Virus genome (UHGV): UHGV-0203597
From: a virus
Length of the DNA stretch: 41,485 nucleotides
Strand: one strand, 5' to 3'
Part shown: in pieces, positions 1 through 41,485 of the stretch
Layout of the letters: every line of letters begins with the position of its first letter
Numbering within the stretch: position 1 is the first letter of the stretch
Program-made: the position numbers and the translations under genes
The notes under the pieces: model-generated
Told to the model about the DNA's origin: nothing
Database searches by the model: none
The model's input: only the letters and a program-made list of their open reading frames with translations

Positions 1-36
1 GTGGATTGGTGCTGTTTTTCCATGATAGGGGTAATT

Positions 37-417
37 ATGAGAAAAGTATTTTTGATTTTTGGATTTATGCTTCTCGTTGGATGCCAGTCAGCTGCACAGT
101 TTGAAAGAAATATGCTTACGTGGCGCGGGCAGAGTATAGACGCAATGGTTCAGCAGTGGGGGTATCCTCAGGGAGAGCTTACATCTCCAGATGGAAACAG
201 AGTGTATGTTTACTCAAGCTCTGGTAGTTATAACGTACCACAAACCACAACGTATAATACTACGTCTAATCTAATTGGTAATACTATATATTCAAACACA
301 TACGCAACAACTGATGGCGGTTATACACTCCATTTCAGTTGCTCTGTTTACGTTGAGTTTGGTGCTGATAAGATTATTAAAAATGTTACATGGCGCGGTA
401 ATAATTGCGTTGCGTGA
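37..417 (+). CDS. Putative lipoprotein (moron; candidate superinfection-exclusion or lysogenic-conversion protein)
   Basis: ATG at 37 with AGGGG 6 nt upstream; signal peptide MRKVFLIFGFMLLVGC with lipobox LVGC; Ser/Thr/Tyr/Asn-rich mature part; AT-rich; no TTACC-N5-GGTAA site upstream; followed by hairpin terminator. Confidence 0.6.
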   Translation: MRKVFLIFGFMLLVGCQSAAQFERNMLTWRGQSIDAMVQQWGYPQGELTSPDGNRVYVYSSSGSYNVPQTTTYNTTSNLIGNTIYSNTYATTDGGYTLHFSCSVYVEFGADKIIKNVTWRGNNCVA

Positions 418-425
418 CATGTCAC
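414..425. repeat. 12-bp perfect palindrome GTGACATGTCAC, copy 1 of 3
   Basis: Overlaps the TGA stop of the lipoprotein gene; identical 12-mer at 22054-22065 and 24541-24552. Confidence 0.5.
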
Positions 426-426
426 A

Positions 427-450
427 GGCCGCTTTCGCGGCCTTGTTTTT
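427..450. terminator. Rho-independent terminator hairpin GGCCGC-TTTC-GCGGCC plus T-tract
   Basis: Perfect 6-bp GC stem, 4-nt loop, then TTGTTTTT on + strand; lies between convergent genes; same 18-mer repeated at 3783-3800. Confidence 0.6.
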
Positions 451-610
451 AACGAATGCCACCGCCACCCGGGCGGGAATCCGCAGAACGCCCACCGCAG
501 CGGGAGCCGTCAGCGGCAGTATCGCTGTCGTGCTGACAACGACCGGCAAAGGCCTGAGTTGAAGCTACCAGAGACAACAAAACGAACAGTGCAGCAAATG
601 CTTTTTTCAT
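449..610 (-). CDS. Small secreted peptide (53 aa, SPase I-type signal, two Cys in mature part)
   Basis: ATG at 610; MKKAFAALFVLLSLVASTQAFA then GRCQHDSDTAADGSRCGG...; last gene of the minus-strand operon after the YafO-like gene; weak RBS. Confidence 0.35.
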   Translation of the reverse strand: MKKAFAALFVLLSLVASTQAFAGRCQHDSDTAADGSRCGGRSADSRPGGGGIR

Positions 611-691
611 TGTGAAATTTCCATCTATAAACCACCTCAATGTGGCGTCAATGAGTGTAGCACTGACTTTTGTTTCGTCCATAAAAAACTA

Positions 692-1204
692 CTATGCAGG
701 CTTTTTGGATTTGTACGAATAATCCCACGGATAAACATTTCTACTAAGTGGAGCTGTATTCGTTCGTTCATGAAATAATTTTGTGAAATTCAATACGGAA
801 TCCATCCAAACTTTTGCGTTAGCTTTGGTGTGTGCGGGCGGGTCCCAATAAGCTAGTAAGGCTGCATCTCTTATTTCATTGACTGCATATATGAGATATG
901 CGTTACTGGTTGGTTTTGGCCTGTAATTTCCTTGTTCATCAATCAATCCATATGACCACTCATCCCAACACTGTTCAGTACATGAGTATGAATATGATGC
1001 ATATTCACCAATATTGACATGAACCTTTCTGAGATGGAAGCCTAATACTTCGTCTGGTCTTTCAAAAAGAGTATCTTTTCCCAGATCAGGATGATGACCA
1101 TGACGCCAGTGTTGTTTAAAAGCATCTTTTAGCGAAATCAGAAAGTCATCAGTTTTAAACTCACCAGTAGGTATAACCTTCCCGCTATACTCACTCAAAA
1201 ACAT
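692..1204 (-). CDS. YafO-family toxin-like protein (paralog 1)
   Basis: 170 aa; motifs HWRHGHHPDLGKDTLF, RKVHVNIG, YLIY, AALLAYWDPPAH recalled as matching E. coli YafO (RDGxLPDxFGRD, VAHIHL, LVYC, AWLLIAILKPEPH); 14-nt overlap with upstream gene. Confidence 0.5.
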   Translation of the reverse strand: MFLSEYSGKVIPTGEFKTDDFLISLKDAFKQHWRHGHHPDLGKDTLFERPDEVLGFHLRKVHVNIGEYASYSYSCTEQCWDEWSYGLIDEQGNYRPKPTSNAYLIYAVNEIRDAALLAYWDPPAHTKANAKVWMDSVLNFTKLFHERTNTAPLSRNVYPWDYSYKSKKPA

Positions 1205-1517
1205 CGAATTCCTCTTCCTTCATATGCGTTTCTAATGAGTTAAGCTGGCGGAAAGATATCTCTTTTGATTCTGCAGATGAGAGCTTTTTTATCCGCTTTA
1301 TATTCTTTGTGATAGGAATAGACATTGTATGCACATCAGCGGATGCTCTTGGCTTTGTGCTGATAAAAATATGGCGCAATGCCGCATTTTCACTATTGAA
1401 CGAGCCAATAGCTGATTTACGTGCTACAACCTTACCAGTAAAAATACGACTCTTGCTACGCTTTGCATGAGTTCCGCTTCTTACCGGACCTCTCATCACG
1501 AATCCAAGTTTTGTCAT
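1191..1517 (-). CDS. Small basic protein, putative cognate partner/antitoxin of YafO-like paralog 1 (no family recognised)
   Basis: 108 aa, Lys/Arg-rich with acidic C-terminus EEEFDVFE; GGAGA RBS; overlaps toxin-like gene. Confidence 0.4.
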   Translation of the reverse strand: MTKLGFVMRGPVRSGTHAKRSKSRIFTGKVVARKSAIGSFNSENAALRHIFISTKPRASADVHTMSIPITKNIKRIKKLSSAESKEISFRQLNSLETHMKEEEFDVFE

Positions 1518-1559
1518 CTTTAATCTCCGGTAAGTTACAGGTATAAAATAAAAACAGGT

Positions 1560-1574
1560 TTACCTTTAAGGTAA
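1560..1574. promoter_or_regulatory. TTACC-N5-GGTAA operator-like palindrome
   Basis: ttacctttaaggtaa, 43 nt upstream of the minus-strand ATG at 1517. Confidence 0.45.
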
Positions 1575-1640
1575 TATTACGCGAATCTACATCACATCGC
1601 CAATGATTATTTTAAAGGCACATCCCTGTGCCGCCGCTCG

Positions 1641-2336
1641 TCAGAAGAACCCTGCCTTGTCGTTGATGTACTCCGCGTGGGTCTGGATATCACGCAGGCA
1701 TTTGCTCACACCGACGATGTAGCAGAACATGGTGGTCAGCTCCGCCGCCGCGCCCGATACGTCGTGCCCGTCTTCCTGTAACTGGTTCAGCAGATTCATC
1801 AGCAGTGAGTTCTCCGTCAGGCCGAGAACACCAGACGGCGAGTGAATCAAACTGCGGTAGCCGGGCTTCAGTGGGGCGCTGTAGGTTTTGTTCTCTATCT
1901 TCATTGCCTGCATCACTGCTGATGCTGTGGCGTTGGCTACCTGGTCGGCAACCATCTTTATGCGTTCTTCCTGCGGGAGCGAGTTTTTAATGTAACTTCC
2001 GGTGCGGCGGATCTGAGGAAGAACCTCACCTGTAACCCATTTACGAAAGCGGTAGGGGATAGTGCCTGGTGTCACTGCGTCGCGGCAGCGGAGGATCAGT
2101 GTGTAGAGGCCTGACTCGGAGATGATGATCGATTCTTGCTCACCGCCAGGGGTGTCGGTTGAAGCGACGCCCTTCTCATCATCATCAAGTTTTCGAACAG
2201 CATCTCGATGGTTTGCTATGCCTATAGCCCGACAAACATCTGAAGCGATAAACCATGGCTCACCATTTATGACGATTACTCGTATATCGGCTTGGGATTC
2301 GAAAGAAAAAATGGACGTGCTTTTTGTAGCTGTCAT
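1641..2336 (-). CDS. BRO-N domain antirepressor-like protein with Ant-type C-terminal domain
   Basis: 231 aa; N-terminal motif PWFIASDVCRAIGI typical of BRO-N; C-terminal ~70 aa paralogous to the small protein at 3805-4062. Confidence 0.75.
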   Translation of the reverse strand: MTATKSTSIFSFESQADIRVIVINGEPWFIASDVCRAIGIANHRDAVRKLDDDEKGVASTDTPGGEQESIIISESGLYTLILRCRDAVTPGTIPYRFRKWVTGEVLPQIRRTGSYIKNSLPQEERIKMVADQVANATASAVMQAMKIENKTYSAPLKPGYRSLIHSPSGVLGLTENSLLMNLLNQLQEDGHDVSGAAAELTTMFCYIVGVSKCLRDIQTHAEYINDKAGFF

Positions 2337-2605
2337 AGTGGTTACCTTTTAGTCTGGTTAATCACCACTACCGACGCCAATCGGTTGGTGGTGAACTGTG
2401 CAGGGTTGGCGTAACCGGCTAAAAGGACCCGGCGCACCTTTCGGTGCCCCCACACAGCCCACCATAATACGAATGTGGCCGTGCTATACGCATAAAAAAA
2501 CCGCTTGCGCGGTGAATGCGCCTTTTAGTAATCCGGAACGCCAATCCCGGCACTGGATTTTGCCAGTGCCCGATTACTATGGCACAAGAGGAGTGCAATG
2601 TAAAT

Positions 2606-2620
2606 TTACCGCAAAGGTAA
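2606..2620. promoter_or_regulatory. TTACC-N5-GGTAA operator-like palindrome
   Basis: ttaccgcaaaggtaa in the 420-bp divergent intergenic region between the BRO-N gene and 2758-3285. Confidence 0.45.
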
Positions 2621-2730
2621 TGATAAATGCATAACTCACGTCATTTCAACCCTATGTGGTTTGATTGATCCCATTTCAGAAAATACCTGCCTATTTTTTT
2701 GCCAGTGAGCGTATACTTTCGATAGAATGT

Positions 2731-2745
2731 TTACCCTAAAGGTAG
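2731..2745. promoter_or_regulatory. TTACC-N5-GGTAg operator-like site (one mismatch)
   Basis: ttaccctaaaggtag, 13 nt upstream of the ATG at 2758. Confidence 0.35.
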
Positions 2746-2757
2746 TTGGGGGTGCCC

Positions 2758-3285
2758 ATGAACACGAAGAGAGTTACAGCGATGAGGCATAGACGCTTTG
2801 CCTTGAAAAGGCCTGAAAAAGAAAAAGAGCAAGAGATGGTGATTGAAGCAGCCGCTTATGCTGCAGCTATGGCAACTGCTGATGCGATTAGAAATTATGA
2901 AGAAGAGGATAATAAAAATTCCTATCGCATTTACTTATATGAGAGCCGTCACAGTGTTACAGACCATGAAGCATGCCTAAAAAAACAAGGGGAAGTATTC
3001 CACTGCAACCTTGCTGAGTACATTAGGAATGAAATGGAAAGGAATTTGGCTTTATCTCATTTTGGATACAAGAGTCAGGAAAGTGGTTTCGCTGGCTTTA
3101 AGGATAAAATTAACGAAAGGTGGCAACGTTTATACAAGCCACTTCAAGTTGATGAGAAAACTCATCAACTTGTTATGCATGAGGTCCCAAAGATGTCCGT
3201 AGAGAAATCCCATGCAATCTCGCGCAGGATGTTTGCACGCACTGCTGAAGACATGGCTCAGGAGCTCTACGACGATGCCGAATAA
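2758..3285 (+). CDS. Hypothetical charged helical protein, putative partner of YafO-like paralog 2
   Basis: 176 aa from ATG 2758 (alternative 2746); acidic C-terminus ELYDDAE; stop overlaps start of downstream toxin-like gene; unrelated to the 108-aa partner. Confidence 0.4.
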   Translation: MNTKRVTAMRHRRFALKRPEKEKEQEMVIEAAAYAAAMATADAIRNYEEEDNKNSYRIYLYESRHSVTDHEACLKKQGEVFHCNLAEYIRNEMERNLALSHFGYKSQESGFAGFKDKINERWQRLYKPLQVDEKTHQLVMHEVPKMSVEKSHAISRRMFARTAEDMAQELYDDAE

Positions 3286-3781
3286 ATTCCAGGGGTTGGT
3301 TCACCCTGGAATTTTTGGGAAGGACCCTGAGCTAATACCTATCAAAAACGCGTTCATAGATCACTGGCGCTACGGTCATCATAAGGATTTCGGAAAGGAC
3401 ACTCTGTTTCGAGATCCACCGAAAGAGATGCTGGAATATCACATACGCCACGTTCACTTAAACATCGGAAACTATACTGACAAGTTTGGTGAGAGCGGTA
3501 CGGAACAATGCTGGAAAAACTGGGCGTCTGGGAAGAAAGACAAGACCACTAACAAGCATAAAAAGATCCCAACCAGTGACGTGTATGTGATTTATCTGGT
3601 CACATCTGAACGCCATGCCTTCCTTCTGGATTATTGGGATGAACCAGCGCATAAGACAGTAGAAATTGACGAGCAGAAGCAAAAATTAGTTGTCGAGTGT
3701 GACAGAATTTTGCGGCTGAAAAAGTTAGAATCCATGCCGCGCGATGCAAGTTTGTGGGACCCAGAATTTTACGACTGTTAA
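3275..3781 (+). CDS. YafO-family toxin-like protein (paralog 2)
   Basis: 168 aa from MPNKF; motifs HWRYGHHKDFGKDTLF, RHVHLNIG, YVIY, AFLLDYWDEPAH align with paralog 1. Confidence 0.5.
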   Translation: MPNKFQGLVHPGIFGKDPELIPIKNAFIDHWRYGHHKDFGKDTLFRDPPKEMLEYHIRHVHLNIGNYTDKFGESGTEQCWKNWASGKKDKTTNKHKKIPTSDVYVIYLVTSERHAFLLDYWDEPAHKTVEIDEQKQKLVVECDRILRLKKLESMPRDASLWDPEFYDC

Positions 3782-3782
3782 T

Positions 3783-3808
3783 GGCCGCTTTCGCGGCCTT
3801 TTCTTTAT
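3783..3808. terminator. Bidirectional terminator hairpin GGCCGC-TTTC-GCGGCC plus T-tract (second copy)
   Basis: Same 18-mer as 427-444; between convergent genes ending at 3781 and 3805. Confidence 0.6.
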
Positions 3809-4062
3809 GTGGTTTGTTTTCGTAATTGTTCGGCACAATAGTCGAGATGTGTTTGCAGATCCTGCATAGACATCTGTGAGCTGGTGACGTAGTTAATCAG
3901 TGCAGTCAGTTCGGCAAGTGGGCCATCGACATTAAATCCATCCTTATCGAGATCCCGGAGTAATTTCATCAAGTGCGATCCCTCCACCAGTGACCTGACG
4001 CCTCCCGGCGTGTGAATCCTTTCGGTAAATCCGTCTTCCAGTGGATAGTGATACTGCTGCAT
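3805..4062 (-). CDS. Small Ant C-terminal-domain-like protein; candidate SOS-inducible antirepressor
   Basis: 85 aa from ATG 4062 (GGAGAAG RBS); paralogous to the C-terminus of the BRO-N protein; LexA box about 20 nt upstream. Confidence 0.5.
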   Translation of the reverse strand: MQQYHYPLEDGFTERIHTPGGVRSLVEGSHLMKLLRDLDKDGFNVDGPLAELTALINYVTSSQMSMQDLQTHLDYCAEQLRKQTT

Positions 4063-4081
4063 CTTATCTTCTCCATGCAAT

Positions 4082-4101
4082 AACTGTATATTTATACAGT
4101 A
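4082..4101. promoter_or_regulatory. LexA (SOS) box
   Basis: aaCTGTatatttatACAGta; minus-strand reading TACTGTATAAATATACAGTT matches consensus TACTGTATATATATACAGTA at 18/20. Confidence 0.6.
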
Positions 4102-4138
4102 GCAAATAATTTGTTTGCTATCCAGCACGTTTTGCAAA

Positions 4139-4153
4139 TTACCTGAAAGGTAA
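4139..4153. promoter_or_regulatory. TTACC-N5-GGTAA operator-like palindrome
   Basis: ttacctgaaaggtaa, identical to the site at 25529; between the LexA-box gene (minus) and the tailspike (plus). Confidence 0.45.
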
Positions 4154-4257
4154 TATCTATTCGTATTTACAGCCTTTCTATCCATATGTGGTTTTCCAGG
4201 TAATAGAATAACCAGATATGCGGCGCAACGGGTGCTGCGACTATCTGGAGATTTAAC

Positions 4258-6909
4258 ATGACGGTCTCAACCGAAGTTGACCACAACGAATACACCGGTA
4301 ACGGAGCTACGACATCATTTCCGTATACCTTCCGTATTTTCAAAAAATCCGACCTGGTTGTTCAGGTGTCTGACCTGAACGGGAACGTAACAGAATTGGT
4401 TCTGGATACTGACTACACAGTAACCAATGCTGGAGGATATAATGGCGGTAATGTAATTCTGTCGAAGGCGTTGGCTAACGGTTATCATATTTCTATATCA
4501 CGAGAGCTCCCGGTTACGCAGGATACTGATTTGCGTAATCAGGGTAAGTTCTTCGCTGAGGTACATGAAGACGCGTTCGATAAACTGACAATGCTTATTC
4601 AAAAGTGTTTTTCATGGATGAGGTTAGCACTTATAAAACCAAGCATTCTGGCTAACTATTATGATGCAAAAAATAATAAGATATCAAATCTAGCAAATGC
4701 CACTGACAGAAACGATGCTGTCAATAAAGGTTATGTTGATGATCTTTTTACTGGAGGTGTAACGCCTACACCTAACAGCGCTAAAAACGATATTTTTACA
4801 AATCACCAAAGAAAGATTGTAGCTACGATGCCGCTTCTTTTTCCTGAATATGATGCGATTATGGCTGCTAACCCGTCAGCAACTTATATGTATCCTCAAG
4901 GATTCTGCGTTAGCGAAGATTTGATATACATCACTTATCCATTTGAGCCTAAACAGACGAATAATGTCGTCGCAGTATTTAACATATCTGGTATTTATCA
5001 AGGTTATTTCTATGTTCAGGCTGGCGGCCCAGGCTTCGCTGCTGAAGGAATCGTGGTTACGTCAGACTATGGCCCCAAAAAAATGTTTGTTGGTCACACA
5101 AACGGAATACTGCGTGAATTTAATATGGAGGGGGCATTATACGGAAGCAATCTGCCTCTTGTACAAAACCATGATGTTGGATTATTCAACCAGTTCAGCT
5201 ACAGAAGAGGTATATGGCTCGTTGAGCAGAATGCGCCAGAAGTAGGACAGAAAATCACAAGAACTGTACTTGCAGTGTTCGACAGTGGTTTCAATCGCCT
5301 GTCAACTATAACGCTGCCGTTACATGATGTTGGGTATGTAACTAAAAGCACCTCACCTTATGCGCCTTATTTCAACAAGCGTCAGGGTATTGCGGTAGGT
5401 GATAACTACTTTGTCTGCGGCTATGGCGGCTTCATAGCTGATGGGGCAGGAAGCGCAGGATATAACGAATATCAGGGCAGCAAAGTTTTTAACCCTGACG
5501 GTACAAAGCGAACTGAATCAATGCTTCATCCTCAGGCCATGATGGATTTAATGAAAGCCGCAGGATTGAACGTCACTCGCATAGAAAATGAAGGCGTTTG
5601 TGTTTCTCAGGATGGAAAATCCATTTATTCACTTTACATTCATCAGGAAAGAACTGGCTCTGAACCTTACAATTCAGGTTTGGTTATTTTCGAAGATTTC
5701 TCCACTGATAAAGATGCTATCGATTTTACACCTGCATCCAGGCTTTACCGCGGATTTGATATCGATCACGCGAGCATTGGGGTATATCCCCGTAGTGCGA
5801 AGGGGATTGTTAACCCTGTAGATGGTACGTTGTTCACTAACATGACTGAAATTCTTCGCTATATGCAGGAGATGAGTCAGAAGGCATTTAATTTTTACAC
5901 AGGGACTGTCAGCATTGCTGATATATCTGGCGTGGCAATCCCTTCCAGCACATATGTTGAAATACTGAATGCGAATAATCAGACTTTTATAGTCAACTAT
6001 TATTCATCTGATAGTGGCATTAGTTATTTGGTTGCAACTAATCCTTCTGGTGACTTTGTATTTGTGCGCCAGCGACCGGCACAGTGGGCATCTAACTTAA
6101 CCATTCAGCAAAACGCAGATCCTGATACAAACCAATTAAACCGCATCACTGCATCATCATATGCCGGTGCAACTACAAACTCTCAGAAAATATTGGTCCT
6201 TGACCAGCAGGCTACAGCTAGCGCAAATAGCTTGGTATTGGGCGGTAGTTCTTCTGTGTTTAGGTCTGCCACCACGGTGGATATTGCATGCAACAGCGAC
6301 CCGACAGCATTGGGAGGAACCATACGCTGGCGGTTTTATGATACAGGTCTTCGCCCGTTTGCTGACAATACCTATAATTTTGGTCAGGCATCGTTTCGTA
6401 TTAAAGACGCCTACTTTGCAAATGCCCCAACCGTTTCATCAGATGCCACGCTGAAAACCAATCCCGAGGCAATATCAGATTTAAGTGAAATGCTTTCTTC
6501 TGATAGAGACAGCATTCTTGATGCCTGGGGCGATATTTCTGTTGTGGCGTATCGATGGCTCGACGCTATATCCATGAAGGGCGATGGTGCCAGATGGCAT
6601 TTTGGCGTCATGGCTCAGCAGGTAAGGGATGTATTCTTGGCGCACGGAATTGATGGAACCAGATTTGGCCTTCTTTGCTATGACGAGTGGGATGATATTT
6701 TTGAGCCGGTAATCGCGACTAAAGAGATTACCGATACGTCTGGTGAGTTGGTCACCGTCGAATATGACACCGGAGAACAGAGGCTGGTTAAAAAAGCGGG
6801 TAGTTCATGGGGTATACGGCCTGACCAGTGCGCTTGGCTTGAGGCTGCATATCAGCGCCGTCGATGCGATCGTATTGAAGAGCGACTCGAACTATTGGAA
6901 TCAAAATAA
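4258..6909 (+). CDS. Tailspike / tail fibre with T7 gp17-like N-terminal domain and C-terminal S74 intramolecular chaperone
   Basis: 883 aa; N-terminus resembles T7-type fibre anchor; C-terminus has RWHFGVMAQQV and GLLCYDEWDD recalled as S74 auto-processing chaperone motifs; central domain unassigned. Confidence 0.8.
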   Translation: MTVSTEVDHNEYTGNGATTSFPYTFRIFKKSDLVVQVSDLNGNVTELVLDTDYTVTNAGGYNGGNVILSKALANGYHISISRELPVTQDTDLRNQGKFFAEVHEDAFDKLTMLIQKCFSWMRLALIKPSILANYYDAKNNKISNLANATDRNDAVNKGYVDDLFTGGVTPTPNSAKNDIFTNHQRKIVATMPLLFPEYDAIMAANPSATYMYPQGFCVSEDLIYITYPFEPKQTNNVVAVFNISGIYQGYFYVQAGGPGFAAEGIVVTSDYGPKKMFVGHTNGILREFNMEGALYGSNLPLVQNHDVGLFNQFSYRRGIWLVEQNAPEVGQKITRTVLAVFDSGFNRLSTITLPLHDVGYVTKSTSPYAPYFNKRQGIAVGDNYFVCGYGGFIADGAGSAGYNEYQGSKVFNPDGTKRTESMLHPQAMMDLMKAAGLNVTRIENEGVCVSQDGKSIYSLYIHQERTGSEPYNSGLVIFEDFSTDKDAIDFTPASRLYRGFDIDHASIGVYPRSAKGIVNPVDGTLFTNMTEILRYMQEMSQKAFNFYTGTVSIADISGVAIPSSTYVEILNANNQTFIVNYYSSDSGISYLVATNPSGDFVFVRQRPAQWASNLTIQQNADPDTNQLNRITASSYAGATTNSQKILVLDQQATASANSLVLGGSSSVFRSATTVDIACNSDPTALGGTIRWRFYDTGLRPFADNTYNFGQASFRIKDAYFANAPTVSSDATLKTNPEAISDLSEMLSSDRDSILDAWGDISVVAYRWLDAISMKGDGARWHFGVMAQQVRDVFLAHGIDGTRFGLLCYDEWDDIFEPVIATKEITDTSGELVTVEYDTGEQRLVKKAGSSWGIRPDQCAWLEAAYQRRRCDRIEERLELLESK

Positions 6910-9056: not shown

Positions 9057-9071
9057 TTACCTTAAAGGTAT
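9057..9071. promoter_or_regulatory. TTACC-N5-GGTAt operator-like site upstream of int
   Basis: ttaccttaaaggtat, 43 nt upstream of the int start. Confidence 0.35.
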
Positions 9072-14742: not shown

Positions 14743-15327
14743 TTATTGTTTGTTTTTTTCGTTCTGGTTGATGACAAATTCAATGTAACTTTCGATCTTT
14801 GCTTTCTCGGTTTCGGGTAACAATGCGTAGCGTGAGCGGTCATAGTTGATAGTCGCAGGGTCGTGCGGGTGAATCAGTAGTTCATATCCGTGACGCCCGA
14901 ATGCGGATGCAACATTCTCCAGGGTGGAAATGGAAACGCTGACCTCATTGTTTAACAGGCGGCTGATTGTCACCTGGGCGACGCCGGATGCGCGGTGAAG
15001 TTTTCCCTGAGTTGAAAGGTCGCGGCTTTCACTCATCCAGCGTTCCAGGTTGTGAGCTGCCAGCTGACCAATGTCGCTTGGGCCGACAGGCTGAAAACCT
15101 TCCTGAGAAAGCGAGCGATCGATATCAAGCCAGTTACGGGGTTTATTGGCGGCAGCTTCAATTTTTCGCGCAACCTGGTCGCCGATAACCTTCTTGCCAA
15201 GAGCCCAGCGGTTTACCAGATTTGCCTGAGTTCCAAGTTTTTCTGCCATCCGCGTCTGAACACCATTGAATTCACGGTCGATCAAGTCGTTGAGATTTTG
15301 CCTGCGGACGTCCTGGATACTTTTCAT
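14743..15327 (-). CDS. Prophage repressor, two HTH domains, no LexA-like autocleavage domain
   Basis: 194 aa; HTH-like segments near residues 25-45 and 105-130; no Ala-Gly/Ser-Lys protease module; flanked by operator palindromes on both sides. Confidence 0.6.
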   Translation of the reverse strand: MKSIQDVRRQNLNDLIDREFNGVQTRMAEKLGTQANLVNRWALGKKVIGDQVARKIEAAANKPRNWLDIDRSLSQEGFQPVGPSDIGQLAAHNLERWMSESRDLSTQGKLHRASGVAQVTISRLLNNEVSVSISTLENVASAFGRHGYELLIHPHDPATINYDRSRYALLPETEKAKIESYIEFVINQNEKNKQ

Positions 15328-25129: not shown

Positions 25130-25206
25130 TGGCGTGGCATGCAGGATTCGAACCTGCGACCAACCGCTTAGAAGGCGGTTGCTCTGTCCAACTGAGCTAA
25201 TGCCAC
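25130..25206 (-). tRNA. tRNA-Arg (anticodon UCU), phage-encoded variant
   Basis: 77 nt GTGGCATTAGCTCAGTTGGACAGAGCAACCGCCTTCTAAGCGGTTGGTCGCAGGTTCGAATCCTGCATGCCACGCCA; full cloverleaf with 7-bp acceptor stem, GTTCGAATC T-loop, encoded CCA; D and T arms match recalled E. coli argU, acceptor and anticodon stems differ. Confidence 0.85.
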
Positions 25207-25854: not shown

Positions 25855-27534
25855 ATGGCGGAAACAACTAAAGAGCGATTGAACAAACAGTTCGCACAAC
25901 TTGAAAGCGAGCGTCAGTCGTTCGAGCCGCACTGGCGCGAGTTGAGTGATTACATCAACCCGCGTGGTTCCCGCTTTCTGACTTCTGAGGCCAACCGTAA
26001 CGATCGGCGCAATACACGCATTATTGATTCGACCGGGACTATGGCGGCGCGCACTCTCGCCAGCGGCATGATGTCAGGCATCACAAGCCCCGCGCGTCCG
26101 TGGTTTCGCCTGGCTACGCCAGATCCTGAAATGATGGATTATGGCCCTGTTAAGTTGTGGCTTGAGGCGGTGCAGAACCGCATGAACGATATGTTCAATA
26201 AGTCGAATCTCTATCAGTCTCTGCCGCAGTTATACGGAAGCCTCGGCACATACAGCACTGGTGCAATGGCAGTGCTGGAGGATGACGAGGACATCATTCG
26301 CACAATGCCATTCCCGATAGGCAGTTACTACCTGGCTAACTCACCTCGTGGCAGTGTGGACACCTGTTTTCGCAAGTTCTCTATGACTGTTCGTCAGCTT
26401 GTTCAGGAGTTCGGGCTAAATAACGTCAGCGAATCCGTAAAAAGCATGTGGGAAAGCGGCACCTACGAGAAGTGGATTGAAGTGATGCATTCGGTTTACC
26501 CGAACATTGACCGCGATACATCGAAGCTGGATAGCAAGAACAAGCCATTCAAATCGGTTTATTACGAGGTTGGTGGCGATAACGACAAGTTGTTGCGTGA
26601 GTCCGGATTCGATGAGTTTCCAATTATGGCTCCGCGCTGGGAAGTTAACGGCGAAGATGTTTATGGATCATCATGCCCGGGTATGCTGGCGCTTGGACCT
26701 GTTAAGGCATTGCAGCTTCTCCAGAAGCGCAAGTCGCAGTTGATTGATAAAGCCACCAATCCGCCGATGGTTGCTCCGACTTCCCTCAAGAATCAGCGTG
26801 CCTCCCTTCTTCCTGGCGACATCACGTATATCGATCAGATTACTGGTCAGGATGGTTTCAGGCCTGCTTATCTGGTTAACCCCAGTACAGCAGATTTGGT
26901 GGCAGACATTCAGGACACCCGTCAAATCATTAACAGCGCCTACTTTGTCGATCTGTTCATGATGTTGCAGAACATCAATACCCGCTCGATGCCTGTTGAA
27001 GCGGTGATCGAAATGAAAGAAGAAAAACTTCTGATGTTGGGGCCGGTTCTGGAGCGTCTGAACGACGAATGTCTTAATCCTCTCATTGACCGCGCTTTCT
27101 CGATGATGGTGCGTAAAAACATGCTGCCGCCACCGCCTGACGCGATGGAAGGCATGCCCCTGAAGGTCGAATACATTTCCGTCATGGCTCAGGCGCAGAA
27201 GTCTATCGGCCTGTCCAGTCTGGCGTCCACGGTTAACTTCATTGGTCAACTTGCGCAAGCGAAACCAGAAGCTCTCGACAAACTCAATGTTGATCAGGCG
27301 ATCGATGCATTCGCTGATATGTCCGGAGTGTCTCCAACCGTCATTGTTCCGCAGGAACAGGTTGAGCAGGCTCGCCAGCAACGGGCACAGCAGCAACAGC
27401 AGCAACAAATGATGGCGATGGGAATGGCGGCGGCACAGGGCGCCAAGACGCTAAGCGAAGCTAAAACTTCGGATCCGAGTGTTTTGTCAGCTATGGCGAA
27501 TGCAGTTAGTGGTCAGGGTGGGCAATCACAATGA
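25855..27534 (+). CDS. Portal protein
   Basis: 559 aa; position after terminase and before scaffold/capsid; acidic Q-rich C-terminus. Confidence 0.7.
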   Translation: MAETTKERLNKQFAQLESERQSFEPHWRELSDYINPRGSRFLTSEANRNDRRNTRIIDSTGTMAARTLASGMMSGITSPARPWFRLATPDPEMMDYGPVKLWLEAVQNRMNDMFNKSNLYQSLPQLYGSLGTYSTGAMAVLEDDEDIIRTMPFPIGSYYLANSPRGSVDTCFRKFSMTVRQLVQEFGLNNVSESVKSMWESGTYEKWIEVMHSVYPNIDRDTSKLDSKNKPFKSVYYEVGGDNDKLLRESGFDEFPIMAPRWEVNGEDVYGSSCPGMLALGPVKALQLLQKRKSQLIDKATNPPMVAPTSLKNQRASLLPGDITYIDQITGQDGFRPAYLVNPSTADLVADIQDTRQIINSAYFVDLFMMLQNINTRSMPVEAVIEMKEEKLLMLGPVLERLNDECLNPLIDRAFSMMVRKNMLPPPPDAMEGMPLKVEYISVMAQAQKSIGLSSLASTVNFIGQLAQAKPEALDKLNVDQAIDAFADMSGVSPTVIVPQEQVEQARQQRAQQQQQQQMMAMGMAAAQGAKTLSEAKTSDPSVLSAMANAVSGQGGQSQ

Positions 27535-27827
27535 CAGATTACGAAGACGATCAACTGAAAGAAGAAAACGCCCGTAAGCAACGTGACATGGCGCAGCGTG
27601 AAATTGATGACATTCGCTTTGTCATGAGCAGTGAACAAGGGCGTCGCGTTGTCTGGTCGGTGCTGGAGAAAGGCCGTGTGTTTTCCGCTATCTCACCGAT
27701 GGACGCTATGGCAATGGCATTTAATGAGGGGCAACGCAATCTGGCGCTGGAACTGTTTCAGCGCGTTATGGCGCATTGCCCTGAACAGTATTTGAAGATG
27801 GCCAAAGAGGCCAGTGAACAGGAGTGA
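27531..27827 (+). CDS. Hypothetical head-assembly protein
   Basis: 98 aa; coupled between portal and scaffold. Confidence 0.4.
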   Translation: MTDYEDDQLKEENARKQRDMAQREIDDIRFVMSSEQGRRVVWSVLEKGRVFSAISPMDAMAMAFNEGQRNLALELFQRVMAHCPEQYLKMAKEASEQE

Positions 27828-28525
27828 TCATGAATTTATTTGAGCGTTTGCTGTATAGCCGTCTTTGCAATGAGCAACCAGTCGATGGTGGAGCAGCTCC
27901 GGCTGCGTCAGAACCGTCAGCTCCTGCAGGTGATAACCCTGCTCCAGTTGGTGATCCATCACAACAGGAAGGTGATAAGCCACAACCTGTTGCTGATGGC
28001 GATAAACCTGCTGATGACAAAAAGCCTGAAAACGATAAGCAGGATGAAAAAAAGGACGGCGATAAACCAGAGGGTGCGCCTGAGAAGTACGAGTTTCAGG
28101 CTGCCGAAGGCGTAGAGCTGGATACAGAAGCGTTGAAGGAATTCGAGCCGGTGGCGCGAGAACTAAACCTGACCAACGAGCAAGCGCAAAAGCTGGTTGA
28201 TGCTTATCCGAAGATTCTGGCAGGTGTTCAGCAGCGCCAGGCAGAAGCCTGGCAGAAAACAACCGAGCAGTGGGCTGCGGATGTAAAAGCCGACAAAGAA
28301 ATCGGTGGCGACAAGTTGATTTCTAACCTTAGCGCCGCACAGCGTGCGCTTGACCAGTTCGGGACACCTGAACTCAAAGAATATCTGAACACCTCCGGGC
28401 TGGGTAATCACCCTGATCTGGTCAAAACGTTCGTGAAAATCGGAAAGGCGATGTCTGAAGATGGCATGGTCACCGGTGGTAATGAAGGCCAGCGTAGTGC
28501 GGCCGAAGTGCTCTATGGCAAATAA
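27824..28525 (+). CDS. Scaffolding protein
   Basis: 233 aa; acidic, Pro/Ala/Lys-rich low-complexity N-terminus then helical C-terminus; directly upstream of capsid. Confidence 0.5.
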   Translation: MIMNLFERLLYSRLCNEQPVDGGAAPAASEPSAPAGDNPAPVGDPSQQEGDKPQPVADGDKPADDKKPENDKQDEKKDGDKPEGAPEKYEFQAAEGVELDTEALKEFEPVARELNLTNEQAQKLVDAYPKILAGVQQRQAEAWQKTTEQWAADVKADKEIGGDKLISNLSAAQRALDQFGTPELKEYLNTSGLGNHPDLVKTFVKIGKAMSEDGMVTGGNEGQRSAAEVLYGK

Positions 28526-28539
28526 GAGAGGAAATGACA

Positions 28540-29526
28540 ATGGCTGTTAAAGGCTTAACTGCGCTAACGCTGGCTGACTGGGGTAAGCGCGTCGATCCAA
28601 ACGGGAAAGTCGATAAGATTATCGAGCTTCTCGGTCAAACTAACCCGATCCTTCAGGATATGCCTTTTGTCGAAGGGAACCTTCCTACCGGACACCGAAC
28701 CACCATTCGTTCTGGTTTACCTTCAGCTACCTGGCGTTTGCTGAACTATGGCGTACAGCCAAGCAAATCAACCACAGTGCAGGTAACCGATTCCGTTGGC
28801 ATGCTGGAAACCTATGCTGAAGTCGATAAGTCACTGGCTGATCTGAACGGTAATACTGCCGAATTCCGCCTGTCTGAAGACCGCGCATTTATTGAAGCGA
28901 TGAATCAGCAGATGGCGCAGACACTGTTTTATGGTGATTCCAGCGTTAACCCTCAGCAGTTTATGGGACTGTCCTCCCGCTATTCCAGCCTGTCTGCGGG
29001 TAATGCTCAGAACATCATTGATGCTGGTGGCACGGGTACAGATAACACCTCAATCTGGTTAGTGGTGTGGGGCGAAAACACCGTGCATGGCATCTTCCCG
29101 AAAGGGCAGAAGGCTGGCATCCAGATGGAAGATAAAGGCCAGGTGACACTGGAAGATGCTAATGGCGGCAAGTACGAAGGCTACCGTACCCATTACAAAT
29201 GGGACAACGGACTTGCTCTGCGTGACTGGCGTTATGTTGTTCGCATTGCAAACATCGATGTCAGCAATCTTTCAGAACCATCCTCTGCCGCAAATATTGC
29301 GAAGTTGATGGTTAAAGCACTACATCGCATTCCAAACCGTGGCATGGGCCGCCCGGTGTTCTACATGAACCGCACTGTAGGCCAGGCTCTTGATCTGCAG
29401 TCTCTGGAGAAAACATCTCTGGCTATCAGCGTAAAAGAGACAGAAGGCGAGTGGTGGACTTCATTCCGTGGTGTACCAATCCGTGAAACTGATGCGCTTC
29501 TGGAAACAGAAGCCCGCGTGGTGTAA
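28540..29526 (+). CDS. Major capsid protein
   Basis: About 329 aa (ATG 28540 with AGAGAGG at 8 nt; alternative 28534); position and size typical of HK97-fold coat proteins. Confidence 0.7.
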   Translation: MAVKGLTALTLADWGKRVDPNGKVDKIIELLGQTNPILQDMPFVEGNLPTGHRTTIRSGLPSATWRLLNYGVQPSKSTTVQVTDSVGMLETYAEVDKSLADLNGNTAEFRLSEDRAFIEAMNQQMAQTLFYGDSSVNPQQFMGLSSRYSSLSAGNAQNIIDAGGTGTDNTSIWLVVWGENTVHGIFPKGQKAGIQMEDKGQVTLEDANGGKYEGYRTHYKWDNGLALRDWRYVVRIANIDVSNLSEPSSAANIAKLMVKALHRIPNRGMGRPVFYMNRTVGQALDLQSLEKTSLAISVKETEGEWWTSFRGVPIRETDALLETEARVV

Positions 29527-29577
29527 CGCCTGTTATTAACCTGTGGGTCGTAACAGACCCACTAATGGAGAAAGAAG

Positions 29578-30015
29578 ATGATCACCGACAAACTGTTGAT
29601 GTTCTCCGAAGCTCAGGCGGTTACGAATACCGCGGCTTCTACTGACGTAATCGATCTCGGTCCAATTGACGGAAAACGTCGTGATATCGGCGTGGGTTAC
29701 CCGCTTGAGTTTTGGGCGCTGGTTAACGCAGCCGCCGCGGCAAGCGGTGATGCAACTGTAAACATCCAGTTGCAGACGAGTGAGAATAACAGCTCATGGA
29801 CCACTATTTATGATAGTGGCGCACTGGCAAAGACCGCCCTGACAGCAGGTAAACGAGTTGTTTCTGCAAAGGTGCCTGCCGGTGTTCAGCGATATCTGCG
29901 TGTTAACTACTCCGTCGCAACTGGCCCACTAACGGCTGGCAAATTCACTGCGGGTATCAGTCTGGATGTTGATGCCAATACGCCGTACCCGATCCGCTCA
30001 AAAGTAACTGGTTAA
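29578..30015 (+). CDS. Hypothetical structural protein (possible capsid decoration)
   Basis: 145 aa; Ala/Thr-rich; immediately after capsid. Confidence 0.4.
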   Translation: MITDKLLMFSEAQAVTNTAASTDVIDLGPIDGKRRDIGVGYPLEFWALVNAAAAASGDATVNIQLQTSENNSSWTTIYDSGALAKTALTAGKRVVSAKVPAGVQRYLRVNYSVATGPLTAGKFTAGISLDVDANTPYPIRSKVTG

Positions 30016-30025
30016 GGTGATATCG

Positions 30026-30361
30026 ATGTCAGGTGAGAAACCAAGATACCGCGTTCTGCGCCTCTCTCATATCCATAACACTCTGTGGCCGGAGGGGGCA
30101 GAAATCGAATACGAAGGTGAGCCTGGTAGCGCACTGGAACCTGTTAACGATGCAGCCAGACAGGCAAAAGCAAAAGTTGCAGGAAAGGTGTCAATGGCAG
30201 CAACCAGCACCAAAATCATCAACGATGTGTCAGATGATGGTGAACTGGATAAGCTCCGTGAAGAGTACGAATTGCTCTTTAACGAGAAGCCACACCATAA
30301 CGCCAAAGCCGAAACGCTACGCGAGAAGATCGCAGATAAGCGTAAAGAACTGGGCGTGTAA
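30026..30361 (+). CDS. Hypothetical protein
   Basis: 111 aa from ATG 30026 (alternative GTG 30017). Confidence 0.4.
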   Translation: MSGEKPRYRVLRLSHIHNTLWPEGAEIEYEGEPGSALEPVNDAARQAKAKVAGKVSMAATSTKIINDVSDDGELDKLREEYELLFNEKPHHNAKAETLREKIADKRKELGV

Positions 30362-30417
30362 GCCTCGCGAATCAGACAAGGGGCTTCGGCCCCTTTATTG
30401 CAGGAGTATAGAAACTT

Positions 30418-31023
30418 ATGGCCTCTGTAGTAGAGATCTGCAATCGTGCGCTGTCCAATATTGGCAACAGCCGCAGCATTAACAGCCTGACGGAAGCCAG
30501 CAAGGAAGCGGGGGAATGTTCGCTGCACTTTGAGGCCTGCCGTGATGCTGTGCTTTCTGATTTTGACTGGAACTTTGCTACCAAACGCGTGGCGCTTGCA
30601 GATACGAGCAATCCACCGCCTGACTGGGAATATGCGTACCAGTACCCGTCAGATTGTCTGCGCATTACTGAAATTATGCTTCCTGGTGTACGCAATCCAA
30701 CAGCAGCAATGCGCGTTCAGTACGAAGTTGGTGCAGACACCAACGGAACAGGAAAATTGATCTACACAGACCAGCCGCAGGCATGGCTCAAGTATGTCTC
30801 TCGCGTTTCAGATGTAAACATGTTTGATGCCATTTTTATGGAGGCGCTGGCCTGGCGTCTTGCGGCAGCCATTAACATGGCGCTGACTGGGAATGCGGAT
30901 CTCGGTACATTTGCTCTCAATATGTACAATCGCGTGATTCTTAGTGCTGGCTCGCATAGCCAGAATGAATCACAGGAACCACAGCCACCGGTTGACGAGT
31001 TTACCATTGCGAGGTTGTCCTGA
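30418..31023 (+). CDS. Tail tubular protein A / adaptor-like (T7 gp11 position)
   Basis: 201 aa; N-terminal pattern VVEICNRALSNIG resembles adaptor/gp11-like starts; gene order. Confidence 0.45.
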   Translation: MASVVEICNRALSNIGNSRSINSLTEASKEAGECSLHFEACRDAVLSDFDWNFATKRVALADTSNPPPDWEYAYQYPSDCLRITEIMLPGVRNPTAAMRVQYEVGADTNGTGKLIYTDQPQAWLKYVSRVSDVNMFDAIFMEALAWRLAAAINMALTGNADLGTFALNMYNRVILSAGSHSQNESQEPQPPVDEFTIARLS

Positions 31024-33494: not shown

Positions 33495-33958
33495 TGATCG
33501 ATGTTCAAATTATTCCCGCAACCGAAGAGCATCTTCAGATGATTTTGCCGGATGTTCGTCAGGCTGATATTGACGAACTGTATGCGGTATCACTGATGAC
33601 TACCGAAGATGCGCTGCGTGTTGGTCTGCGTACTGCGACTATGGCCTGGTCAGGATTTGCGAACGGAGAACTGGTAACCATGTTTGGCGTATCTCCGGCG
33701 TCAATGATCGGTGGCAATGGTACGCCATGGCTGGTAGGAACCAGCCGTATTGAAAAATATCAGAAGACATTTCTTCGCCACTGCCGCCCTGTATTGCAGC
33801 AGATGCTGGCAGTTTATCCGCGTCTGGAAAACTACGTCGACGAGCGAAACCATGTTGCCAAAGCATGGCTCCACTGGCTTGGATTCAGGCTTGAAGAAGC
33901 CGCGCCTTATGGTGCTCTTGGTCTTAATTTCCACAGATTTCACATGGAGAGAAAATAA
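33494..33958 (+). CDS. Internal virion protein (T7 gp13 position)
   Basis: 154 aa; TGATG coupling. Confidence 0.4.
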   Translation: MIDVQIIPATEEHLQMILPDVRQADIDELYAVSLMTTEDALRVGLRTATMAWSGFANGELVTMFGVSPASMIGGNGTPWLVGTSRIEKYQKTFLRHCRPVLQQMLAVYPRLENYVDERNHVAKAWLHWLGFRLEEAAPYGALGLNFHRFHMERK

Positions 33959-34497
33959 TGTGTAACCCAGCCATCGCTTTGGTTGCCGTCACAGTGGCAT
34001 CCACAGCCGCGTCAATGTACAGCCAGAGCAAGCAGGCAAAATACCAGTCAGCCATAGCTGATCGGAATGCTGAAATTGCTGAAGCTCAGGCACAGGATTC
34101 AATCAATCGTGGGAATATTGAAGCGGATCAGCGTCGTCGTGAAATGCGTCAACGCTCAGGCACTGCGGCGGCCACTATGGGGGCTACCGGTGCGGAATTA
34201 AGTAGCGGAACAGCTCTTGACGTTTTTGCGGATAATGCTCAGTTCGGCGCTCTTGATGCGTTAACGACAGTGAATAATGCTCAGCGTGAGGCATATGGGT
34301 ATCAGGTTCAGGGAATGAATGCTCAGGCACAGGGGGCTGCTGCTCAGTCGGCTGCTAAATCATCGATGACCAGCACTTTGTTAACAGCACCACTAAAAGC
34401 ATACGGTGCATACCAGATGGGCGGAGGAACGTGGAGCCCATTCTCTCAGAAGGCTGCGCCGATTTCTGCTGCTGTTGGCACTCCAACCGGTCGATAA
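33958..34497 (+). CDS. Internal virion / ejection protein (T7 gp14 position)
   Basis: 179 aa; N-terminal hydrophobic segment, Ala/Gln-rich. Confidence 0.45.
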   Translation: MCNPAIALVAVTVASTAASMYSQSKQAKYQSAIADRNAEIAEAQAQDSINRGNIEADQRRREMRQRSGTAAATMGATGAELSSGTALDVFADNAQFGALDALTTVNNAQREAYGYQVQGMNAQAQGAAAQSAAKSSMTSTLLTAPLKAYGAYQMGGGTWSPFSQKAAPISAAVGTPTGR

Positions 34498-34509
34498 GGG
34501 GATAATAAG

Positions 34510-38822: not shown

Positions 38823-38827
38823 ATTAA

Positions 38828-41302: not shown

Positions 41303-41312
41303 AAGGAGATAT

Positions 41313-41438
41313 GATGGTTCAAATAACTTTTATTGTACTAATATGTGCAGCGTTTTTATGCTATTCATACATTTTGATAAAAATGGGTTTCAATTGGAAT
41401 CTCTGTTGCGTGCAGCGGCATGGTTCGGCTTTGTAGTA
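41313..41438 (+). CDS. Small single-pass membrane protein (41 aa)
   Basis: AAGGAG RBS; MMVQITFIVLICAAFLCYSYILIK...; AT-rich; below ORF-track cut-off. Confidence 0.3.
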
Positions 41439-41485
41439 TTCGGAATTGTATTGTTCGGAAGAATAATAAAATAACTAGTTAATTT

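Follow-up and report, generated by a model that had tools for sequence, protein, structure and literature searches.

A variable island of antirepressor, RNA, and toxin-like genes next to the tailspike gene of a Uetakevirus

We studied the region between the last internal-virion gene and the tailspike gene in UHGV virus genome UHGV-0203597, a stretch of 41,485 nucleotides (nt) that we call the window. The whole 41.5-kb window is a complete, circularly permuted genome of a temperate podophage, and the region in question (the island) runs from 41303 across the window junction to 4257, or 4,440 bp. On its left is a virion or ejection-type gene of 824 amino acids (aa), a homolog of epsilon15 gp17, which ends at 41302; on its right, the tailspike gene starts at 4258. 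Between them are two short hydrophobic open reading frames (ORFs), a lipoprotein gene, a gene for a secreted peptide, two YafO-like genes with upstream partners, a Bro-N antirepressor gene with an RNA leader, and an 85-aa antirepressor gene.

Over 95% of its length, the structural module (26000-41302) has 97.7% identity to those of phiV10, ZX5, and phiv142-3; its identity to that of epsilon15 is about 75%. Judging from these similarities, this is a temperate Uetakevirus (epsilon15/phiV10/SPC32H-like) that resides in Escherichia coli. Because its structural module is so close to those of phiV10 and ZX5, it is not P22-like.

Variability and composition of the island

We mapped the island genes onto 50 related loci, many of which are nearly identical to each other. 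Among relatives whose structural genes are about 98% identical, and in which we could place both flanking genes, the island interval varies from 662 bp (in 65FD) to 4,940 bp; in epsilon15, it is 724 bp. The 85-aa antirepressor gene adjoins the N-terminal domain of the tailspike in all 46 of the related loci with a detected tailspike N terminus. All of the other content has been gained or lost in blocks. The full-length island, at about 100% identity, is present as a segment of a prophage in 2 of 5,426 complete E. coli genomes (B19695 and Nord58). The range of interval lengths and the block-wise gain and loss show that the island is a true mosaic hotspot: it consists of a conserved core plus exchangeable cassettes, and it is a site of frequent recombination.

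An earlier, sequence-only reading of this stretch had proposed an accessory island here and had set a comparison with related phage genomes as its test. That comparison strongly confirms that the island is variable. The boundaries that it proposed were also right, as were the mixed strands (in order, + + - - - - (RNAs -) + + -), the lipoprotein, the secreted peptide, and the two toxin-like modules. It also expected two antirepressor-like genes and a small membrane protein. Both antirepressor genes are present, but one of them is the 85-aa gene (3805-4062) and not a 126-aa ORF. The membrane protein is doubtful: two short ORFs overlap in different frames, with one helix each, and PGAP does not call a gene there.

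Two further claims, that the island genes are AT-rich and that they are bounded by terminators, held in part. The GC content of the island is 44.3%, as compared to 49.2% for the remaining genome and 50.4% for the structural module, which places the island within the lowest 4% of same-sized segments of the genome. But this is patchy. Low GC is seen in the lipoprotein gene (40%), the two toxin pairs (39-45%), and the small membrane ORF (36%) but not in the gene for the secreted peptide (57%), the Bro-N gene (52.9%), or the RNA leader (51.8%), all three of which reach or exceed the mean of the genome. The tailspike gene, which is outside the island, is just as AT-rich (43.9%). As for terminators, there are 11 terminator-like sites in positions 1-4400, versus 3.5 +/- 1.8 in shuffled sequences. 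The convincing ones follow the lipoprotein gene (426-443), toxin 2 (3783-3798), and the IsrK RNA (2513-2500), so the good terminators separate the cassettes rather than mark the outer borders. A scan of 41000-41485 found no terminators, so there are none after the left flanking gene, and the right border is a divergent promoter and control region.

Two antirepressors and an antisense RNA leader

The features of the antirepressor systems are as follows.

3805-4062, minus strand: core antirepressor Ant, 85 aa, homolog of epsilon15 gp19 and of SPC32H Ant
4084-4153: ant/tailspike control region, with a LexA box CTGTATATTTATACAG (4084-4099) and a putative repressor operator TTACCTGAAAGGTAA (4139-4153)
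14743-15327, minus strand, outside the island: prophage repressor Rep
1641-2336, minus strand: second antirepressor, 231 aa, in which Bro-N is fused to a C-terminal domain like Ant
2345-2380, minus strand: C4 target set 2, with b2 TTGGCGT (2380-2374) and a2 CTAAAAGG (2352-2345)
2384-2469, minus strand: C4 antisense RNA, with loops a' CCUUUUAG and b' ACGCCAA
2494-2569, minus strand: IsrK small RNA, which is also the upstream target element of C4, with b1 (2544-2538), a1 (2528-2521), and its own terminator (2513-2500)
2576-2649, minus strand: tandem promoter-like sites for the IsrK-C4-antirepressor operon, with a putative operator TTACCGCAAAGGTAA (2606-2620) between them

The 85-aa protein aligns over residues 2-85 to the "Anti-repressor protein" in PDB entry 5d50 (chain E), with about 86% identity (phmmer, E = 1.3e-47). 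Its start at 4062 is used by PGAP and in all of the relatives, and it is preceded by the Shine-Dalgarno sequence GGAGA; the 126-aa ORF at 3805-4185 is an over-extension of this gene. The repressor is similar to the "Repressor" in the same PDB entry (5d50_A, phmmer E = 4e-42). The LexA box upstream of ant (AACTGTATATTTATACAGTA) is near the consensus and lies 22 nt upstream of the start codon. It is one of three CTGT-N8-ACAG sites in the window (0.48 were expected) and the only one that matches the extended consensus. Epsilon15 has an equivalent LexA box and the same arrangement of the control region.

A repeat search flagged a palindrome, TTACC-N5-GGTAA. If we allow up to one mismatch, it occurs 15 times in the window, versus 0.64 times expected and at most 4 times in shuffled sequences. 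The record for epsilon15 labels the same motif as "repressor; lysogeny", and one of the labeled sites separates gp19 from the tailspike gene. The island contains four of the 15 sites, all of them in promoter regions (1560-1574, 2606-2620, 2731-2745, and 4139-4153); pairs of sites also flank the gene for Rep. From these sequence data, Rep is the presumed binder of these sites and the presumed target of both antirepressors, and the distribution of the sites suggests that a single repressor governs many dispersed promoters, as is annotated for epsilon15. The 11 operator-like sites outside the island (15 bp each, at 9057, 14609, 14671, 15383, 15431, 15768, 17708, 17770, 22330, 22348, and 25529) are often in pairs that are 18-62 bp apart, and they lie around the gene for Rep and other early or late promoters.

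The Rep-Ant switch of SPC32H was reportedly described by Kim and Ryu in 2013 and by Kim et al. in 2016. As summarized in two papers, SPC32H Ant is produced after LexA is cleaved, and a tetramer of Ant splits the DNA-binding tetramer of Rep into dimers (PMC7380047, PMC9638917). The core of our island is like the systems of SPC32H and epsilon15 in the highly similar Ant, the homologous Rep, the LexA box upstream of ant, the position of ant beside the tailspike gene, and the operator motif (as annotated in epsilon15), and we saw no substantive difference in the core itself. Homology thus identifies the core as an SPC32H-type Rep/Ant switch under the control of LexA. If it works as published for SPC32H, then DNA damage would remove LexA, Ant would be made, and Ant would break up tetrameric Rep, which would induce the prophage.

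What the window adds to this core is a second antirepressor under separate RNA control. The 231-aa protein has a Bro-N domain at its N terminus (Pfam, E = 2e-21) and belongs to phrog_130 ("anti-repressor Ant"). Over its last 80 residues, it has 42% identity to the 85-aa Ant (BLASTP against the translation of 3805-4185, E = 6e-19), so the fusion protein presumably acts on the same class of Rep.

Upstream of this gene is an unannotated gap of 410 bp (2337-2745), which contains two RNA genes and three control sites. The C4 RNA matches Rfam family RF01695 over its full length (77.7 bits, versus a gathering score of 45), and IsrK matches RF01394 (72.3 bits, versus 50). The family for the upstream C4 targets (c4-a1b1, RF03163) overlaps IsrK at 39 bits, which is below its gathering score of 46.7. 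Exact complements of the a' and b' loops of C4 occur twice: within IsrK (a1/b1) and downstream of C4 (a2/b2). Furthermore, a2 covers the Shine-Dalgarno sequence of the antirepressor, 8 nt before the start codon at 2336. The promoter-like sequence TTTACA-17-CATAGT places the predicted start of transcription at the first base of IsrK, and TTGAAA-18-TATCAT lies farther upstream. The -35 and -10 elements of the IsrK promoter and the GGTAA half-site are conserved among the relatives. The 3' end of C4 (...CACCACCA) is compatible with release by RNase P.

These RNA contacts covary. Among 36 distinct IsrK-C4-leader sequences from the related loci, there are 15 combinations of the a' and b' loops, with at least eight a alleles and three b alleles (another allele is CUACAAAGG/UGGUCU). 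The cognate contacts are maintained in all 36 sequences: at least 7 nt for a'-a2, at least 7 nt for b'-b2, at least 8 nt for a'-a1, and at least 7 nt for b'-b1. For non-cognate combinations, the mean is 5.8 nt. Such extensive three-way compensatory change strongly supports a function for the contacts, and 15 combinations imply many heteroimmune specificities. Some relatives carry more than one allele: four Uetakevirus-like contigs from IMG/VR (L014, L020, L021, and L025) each have two convergent IsrK-C4-antirepressor cassettes, with differing loop alleles, in one island.

There are just 47 nt between C4 and the start codon of the antirepressor, and we found no icd gene between them. C4 would therefore address the antirepressor's own ribosome-binding site, and since a2 is the Shine-Dalgarno sequence and is complementary to C4, free C4 would block translation of the antirepressor and would serve as an immunity factor with sequence specificity. 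Competition for the same segments of C4 would come from IsrK or, in cis, from a1/b1. The predicted fold of the full leader is stable (z = -4.55) and has a1/b1 paired in cis with a'/b', like "structure A" of Gifsy-1, which is why we read IsrK and its a1/b1 sites as a competitor for C4. We infer the mechanism from P1/P7 and Gifsy-1; the anatomy of the cassette and the covariation were observed here.

The immI operon of P1/P7 (c4-icd-ant) was reportedly described by Citron and Schuster in 1990. In P1, one immI promoter is controlled by C1 and the other is constitutive; the leader in the window likewise has tandem promoters, one of them beside a repressor operator. The immI design is a C4 RNA with duplicated targets (PMC12197685, PMC8201110). 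The leader in the window shares the exposed a' and b' segments of C4, the upstream (a1/b1) and downstream (a2/b2) target sets, the placement of the downstream set over a ribosome-binding site, and allelic a/b variants that would give heteroimmunity. Unlike P1/P7, the window lacks icd, so that C4 directly targets the antirepressor's Shine-Dalgarno sequence; the protein made from this gene fuses Bro-N with an SPC32H-Ant-like domain; and the element is an integrating podophage. Also, P1/P7 have two loop variants, as compared to at least 15 combinations among the Uetakevirus relatives.

In the Gifsy-1 operon (isrK-orf45-anrP), IsrK activates the antirepressor via a coupled upstream ORF, and the leader can form structure A (PMC4825925). 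In both operons, IsrK ends in a leaky terminator of its own, beyond which are a structured leader and the gene for an antirepressor, and in both, IsrK pairs in cis with the downstream leader. However, orf45 of Gifsy-1 overlaps the start codon of the antirepressor, and we found no such ORF in the leader in the window; the region that is called orf45 in Gifsy-1 scores here as a C4 RNA. There are two small ORFs within C4, at 2465-2358 and 2455-2342 on the minus strand (35 and 37 codons), whose stop codons are 21 and 5 nt before the start codon of the antirepressor. These may be the counterparts of orf45, though neither overlaps the start codon.

In some relatives, a P22-like ant gene is stacked with a C4-type cassette: in L001 (TL-2011b, at 1780-2964 and 1951-2018) and in L019 and L042. 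An arc gene accompanies ant in L001 and L019, and Rfam confirmed the sar RNA only in L001. The presence of both in one island implies that two unrelated antirepressor systems, each under antisense control, can be stacked.

Toxin-like pairs, left-end genes, and cassette junctions

The features of the toxin-like pairs are as follows.

692-1204, minus strand: YafO-like toxin 1, 170 aa, a predicted endoribonuclease of the RelE/HigB fold
1191-1517, minus strand: partner 1, 108 aa, a putative antitoxin (phrog_5933), which overlaps the start of the toxin gene by 14 nt and has a C-terminal motif that ends in FDVFE
1560-1574: operator-like palindrome TTACCTTTAAGGTAA upstream of the partner 1/toxin 1 operon
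2699-2745, plus strand: promoter-like sequence TTGCCA-18-TAGAAT for the partner 2/toxin 2 operon
2758-3285, plus strand: partner 2, 175 aa, a putative antitoxin (phrog_9503, a PGAP coding sequence), which overlaps the start of the toxin gene by 11 nt and has a motif that ends in YDDAE
3275-3781, plus strand: YafO-like toxin 2, 168 aa (phrog_1651; "YafO family toxin" in PGAP)

The two toxins are paralogs, with 46% identity (BLASTP, E = 3e-38). A HMMER search of 1.84 billion representative sequences with the toxin found 66 clusters at E <= 0.001. When an alignment of 48 members of the family was compared to YafO from E. coli K-12, hhalign gave a probability of 95.9% (E = 6.3e-9), and 29 of the 48 members match the Pfam family for YafO (PF13957), with a best E value of 7e-23. 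Only the 48-sequence profile was informative: BLASTP of the single sequence against YafO from K-12 gave E = 1.6, and hhalign with a profile of 10 sequences gave a probability of 6%. Comparing the toxin profile to the sequences in PDB yielded only chance matches to lectins. Residues F29, G42, H62, and H125 are invariant in the toxin family, D44 and Y106 are nearly so, and all have collinear counterparts in YafO. The AlphaFold model of the toxin is confident (predicted local distance difference test score, pLDDT, of 95.8). These proteins are probably mRNA endoribonucleases with the RelE/HigB fold: the fold is supported by the model and the pairing and the operator-like site by the related loci (below), and we infer the activity.

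In all 45 of the loci with a toxin gene, an upstream ORF overlaps its start by 11 or 14 nt. The partners range from 108 to 175 aa, with N-terminal parts that are unrelated and often basic, as in partner 1, whose N terminus is basic and variable. What they share is a C-terminal segment of about 35 aa that ends in [FY]D..E at the overlap; partners 1 and 2 have nothing else in common. In a homologous locus whose toxin is just 33% identical, the partner is 60 aa, or barely more than this segment. The conserved segment would be the part that neutralizes the toxin. In Pfam and NCBIfam, the partners have no credible match (partner 1 has a marginal one to DUF1319, E = 0.051, 14.2 bits), and a search of PDB with partner 2 found nothing credible.

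Each pair is preceded by an operator-like site. For pair 2, the site (TTACCCTAAAGGTAG, at 2731-2745, with one mismatch) lies over the predicted start of the transcript. Among 45 related loci, 41 have such a site no more than 160 nt ahead of the partner gene, whereas the background density is 0.39 sites per kb. The half-sites are conserved while the central five bases and the N termini of the partners vary, even in a locus from Serratia and in L058, a distant podophage-like element. In ZX5 and EC.W1-9, pair 1 is replaced by a cassette that encodes an unrelated 108-aa protein and a DUF2335 membrane protein, and this cassette also begins with a TTACC-N5-GGTAA site. If Rep binds the site ahead of each pair, then the pairs are probably repressed in the lysogen and expressed upon infection or induction, at which time they would act as modulators of host translation, similar to toxin-antitoxin systems, or as abortive effectors.

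The pairs resemble YafN-YafO of E. coli in the conserved collinear residues (F, G-[KR]-D, H, Y, H), in the predicted RelE/HigB fold, and in having an upstream partner gene that overlaps the toxin gene. They differ in the length of the toxin (132 aa for YafO, versus 168-170 aa) and in that the individual toxins fall below the Pfam cutoff. Also, YafN is of the Phd/YefM type, while the partners form an unannotated family with a hypervariable N terminus, and the pairs are on a phage and preceded by an operator of the prophage repressor. In a census from 2011, YafO was found only on chromosomes and only with partners of the Phd type (PMC3141249).

The DUF2335 cassette occupies the slot of pair 1 at L002 3281-4082, L005 1796-2597, and L011 155-956. 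We considered whether the 108-aa protein upstream of DUF2335 might be partner 1, but the two are unrelated and their equal length is a coincidence. On the chromosome of Serratia aquatilis (L012, 3281-4513), a small Ant-like gene is followed by a partner/YafO-like pair, whose toxin is 69% identical, beside an ejection-type gene. An integrase-like ORF precedes the pair by about 2.4 kb, and the locus may be a degraded or satellite-like element.

The remaining features of the island are as follows.

41311-41474, plus strand: small hydrophobic ORFs, at 41311-41436 (41 aa, one helix) and in an overlapping frame at 41286-41474 (a second helix)
37-417, plus strand: lipoprotein, 126 aa, with lipobox LLVG-C16 and a predicted BamE/OsmE/BLIP-like fold
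449-610, minus strand: secreted or membrane-associated peptide, 53 aa (phrog_14503, E = 2e-40; a PGAP coding sequence)
426-443, plus strand: intrinsic terminator after the lipoprotein gene, with the same stem as 3783-3798
3783-3798, plus strand: intrinsic terminator after toxin 2, with stem GGCCGCTTTCGCGGCC

The lipoprotein (lipobox LLVGC) is a candidate envelope moron. The gene and the small membrane ORFs form a cassette that is found in 34 of 5,426 E. coli genomes and in phage ZX5. The secreted peptide has a signal peptide that ends in ...STQAFA|G, which would leave a mature peptide of 31 aa with two cysteines, and its gene is in most of the related islands. These two would be accessory genes directed at the envelope. 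Of all the island genes, only that for the lipoprotein and the doubtful membrane ORFs look like a classical moron. The small ORFs have no match in Pfam or PHROG and are located where epsilon15 and phiV10 encode small membrane proteins (gp18 and gp21, respectively). Whether they are coding is doubtful. They resemble a two-helix membrane gene (such as phiV10 gp21 or epsilon15 gp18) that has been split by a frameshift, and there is no intact fused homolog of them in the phage collection. In E. coli, there are 34 copies of the region, all at least 99% identical; among the 25 listed, 22 are 100% identical.

At the position of the lipoprotein gene, L058 has a gene of the Rap1a family (4633-4989, minus strand), which is similar to immunity proteins of the type VI secretion system (T6SS) and lies between an ejection-type gene and a YafO-like pair. 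The model of the lipoprotein also resembles a T6SS immunity lipoprotein.

Two unrelated cassettes, the lipoprotein gene and pair 2, are followed by a 32-nt direct repeat (420-451 and 3776-3807, 84% identical) that contains the terminator stem GGCCGCTTTCGCGGCC. This repeat may be a recombination joint for the exchange of cassettes. Right after the stop codon of the Bro-N gene, at 1608-1623 on the minus strand, is a hairpin (GGCACAGGGATGTGCC then TTTAAAAT) that is kept across the cassette junction in EC.W1-9; it is probably a terminator that the scan missed. Elsewhere in the phage genome there is a tRNA-Arg gene with anticodon TCT (25130-25206, minus strand), identified by Rfam (73.3 bits) and by ARAGORN.

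Possible roles of the island

Overall, we favor the view that this is a variable immunity and accessory island of a Uetakevirus, with a Rep/Ant core, a C4-gated Bro-N/Ant protein, toxin pairs headed by repressor sites, and envelope genes at its left end. We put the probability of this at about 0.72. Several points weigh against it. The case for binding of Rep to TTACC-N5-GGTAA comes from the annotation of epsilon15 and from how the sites are distributed. The operator near the IsrK promoter is just upstream of the -35 element and might repress only the upstream promoter of the tandem. Since the ORFs within C4 stop 5 or 21 nt before the start codon, the coupled-ORF activation of Gifsy-1 may not transfer to this leader. 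Toxin 1 scores 19.7 bits against PF13957, where the cutoff is 25, and toxin 2 does not match the family; the partners have no recognizable DNA-binding domain and no similarity to YafN or Phd. Because many of the related loci are near-identical, there are fewer independent observations than counts such as 41 of 45 would suggest. And if Rep shut off a classical toxin-antitoxin pair as lysogeny was being established, this would be expected to release the toxin.

The sequence-only reading placed the immI/sieA region of P22-like phages here and expected a hotspot for defense and conversion. As a P22-type region whose cargo is mainly defense or conversion genes expressed in the lysogen, the island would have the expected position between ejection and tailspike genes, its AT-rich average, its highly variable content, and an antirepressor under a small antisense RNA. 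In addition, P22-like ant is found in the same island of TL-2011b, L019, and L042, along with arc in TL-2011b and L019 and sar in TL-2011b, and the genes for the lipoprotein and the secreted peptide have no upstream operator, as would be expected for morons. But the phage is a Uetakevirus, and no component is homologous: the RNA, the repressor, and the antirepressor are all of different families. None of the island proteins match P22-type Arc, Mnt, or Ant in Pfam, PHROG, or NCBIfam; tblastn with Arc and Ant from TL-2011b found nothing in the window; and Rfam did not find sar in the window even at E <= 1, although it did in TL-2011b (44.8 bits). We did not recognize a SieA-like protein, but we did not use a reference sequence for SieA, and the membrane ORFs at 41311-41474 have no family match. 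As for defense, no island protein has a credible match in PADLOC 2.0 (there are three marginal ones, all to partner 2, with E = 3.7e-4 to 3.5e-3 and 15-18 bits), and the operators before the antirepressor operon and before both toxin pairs argue for silencing in the lysogen rather than for conversion or defense morons. Thus, an antirepressor and immunity region does lie at this position and it is a variable hotspot, but we consider a P22-type origin and role to be improbable. It is even harder to view the island as decaying mosaic DNA, that is, as remnants of recombination with no selected function. The small membrane ORF does seem to be split into two frames, and the terminator stems that recur and the junction sequences that are shared suggest that recombination is frequent. 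But the other nine ORFs are all intact and in conserved families, the RNA contacts covary, and the overlaps and operators are conserved down to 33% identity of the protein. The covariation and conservation largely refute this idea, and we give it very little weight.

More serious questions concern individual cassettes. Toxin-antitoxin modules are common cargo for phage defense, and the YafO-like pairs might be ordinary type II modules that regulate themselves, are expressed in the lysogen, and act in stabilization or abortive infection, with palindromes that are incidental or are bound by the partners. The order of antitoxin and toxin, the overlap of stop and start codons, the RelE/HigB fold, the acidic C terminus of the partners, and PGAP's naming of YafO family toxins all fit. 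However, the palindrome is the same motif as the sites at the repressor gene and in the ant/tailspike control region, it is retained even though the N termini of the partners differ entirely, and the unrelated DUF2335 cassette has it too; nor do the partners have a recognizable DNA-binding domain. We view type II modules as a possibility, but one with the odds against it. At the other extreme, the toxin pairs and the DUF2335 cassette could all be effectors that are gated by the repressor and are not defense morons of the lysogen. As each cassette carries its own operator for Rep, it would fire only if Rep were missing or had been taken apart by an antirepressor: upon infection, upon SOS induction, or when the Bro-N/Ant protein of a heteroimmune relative escapes the resident C4. 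The toxin would then either benefit the phage by shutting down host translation or act as a tripwire that aborts takeover by a competitor. With the combinatorial C4 specificities added, the island would be an arena for conflict between phages. This strong form of the idea seems rather unlikely to us. Similarly, it is conceivable, though doubtful, that the IsrK-C4 leader works as in Gifsy-1, with IsrK activating translation of the antirepressor in trans, and not with a repressing antisense RNA as in P1. This would fit the strong match to IsrK (72.3 bits), the terminator of IsrK followed by a read-through leader, and the predicted pairing in cis of the middle part of IsrK with the C4 region, as in structure A (PMC4825925). 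But the C4 loops are complementary to the Shine-Dalgarno sequence of the antirepressor and covary with it in 36 of 36 leaders, which the Gifsy-1 model does not require, and no upstream ORF overlaps the start codon here. The two models can be compatible if IsrK serves as a decoy for C4.

Every component of the island belongs to a described family or fold, and the least expected feature is the wiring of the toxin pairs to operators of the repressor. In the searchable literature, we did not find descriptions of an SOS-controlled Ant and a C4-gated Bro-N/Ant-domain fusion in one island, of the breadth of C4 specificity alleles in Uetakeviruses, or of a phage-borne branch of YafO with its own family of partners and with repressor operators. 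Our results also bear on annotation. PGAP names the Bro-N and YafO-family genes but misses the RNAs and the identity of Ant: the 85-aa "hypothetical protein" beside Uetakevirus tailspike genes is an antirepressor, the "gap" at 2337-2745 contains RNA genes, and the 126-aa ORF over-extends the 85-aa gene. If control by the repressor is confirmed, then cargo that looks like toxin-antitoxin systems would function at the time of induction or infection and not in defense of the lysogen. More broadly, this temperate podophage layers two antirepressor switches, a conserved SOS-controlled Ant and an antisense-gated add-on, on a single repressor, and the many covarying C4 specificity alleles would make phages that are nearly identical in other respects heteroimmune to one another.

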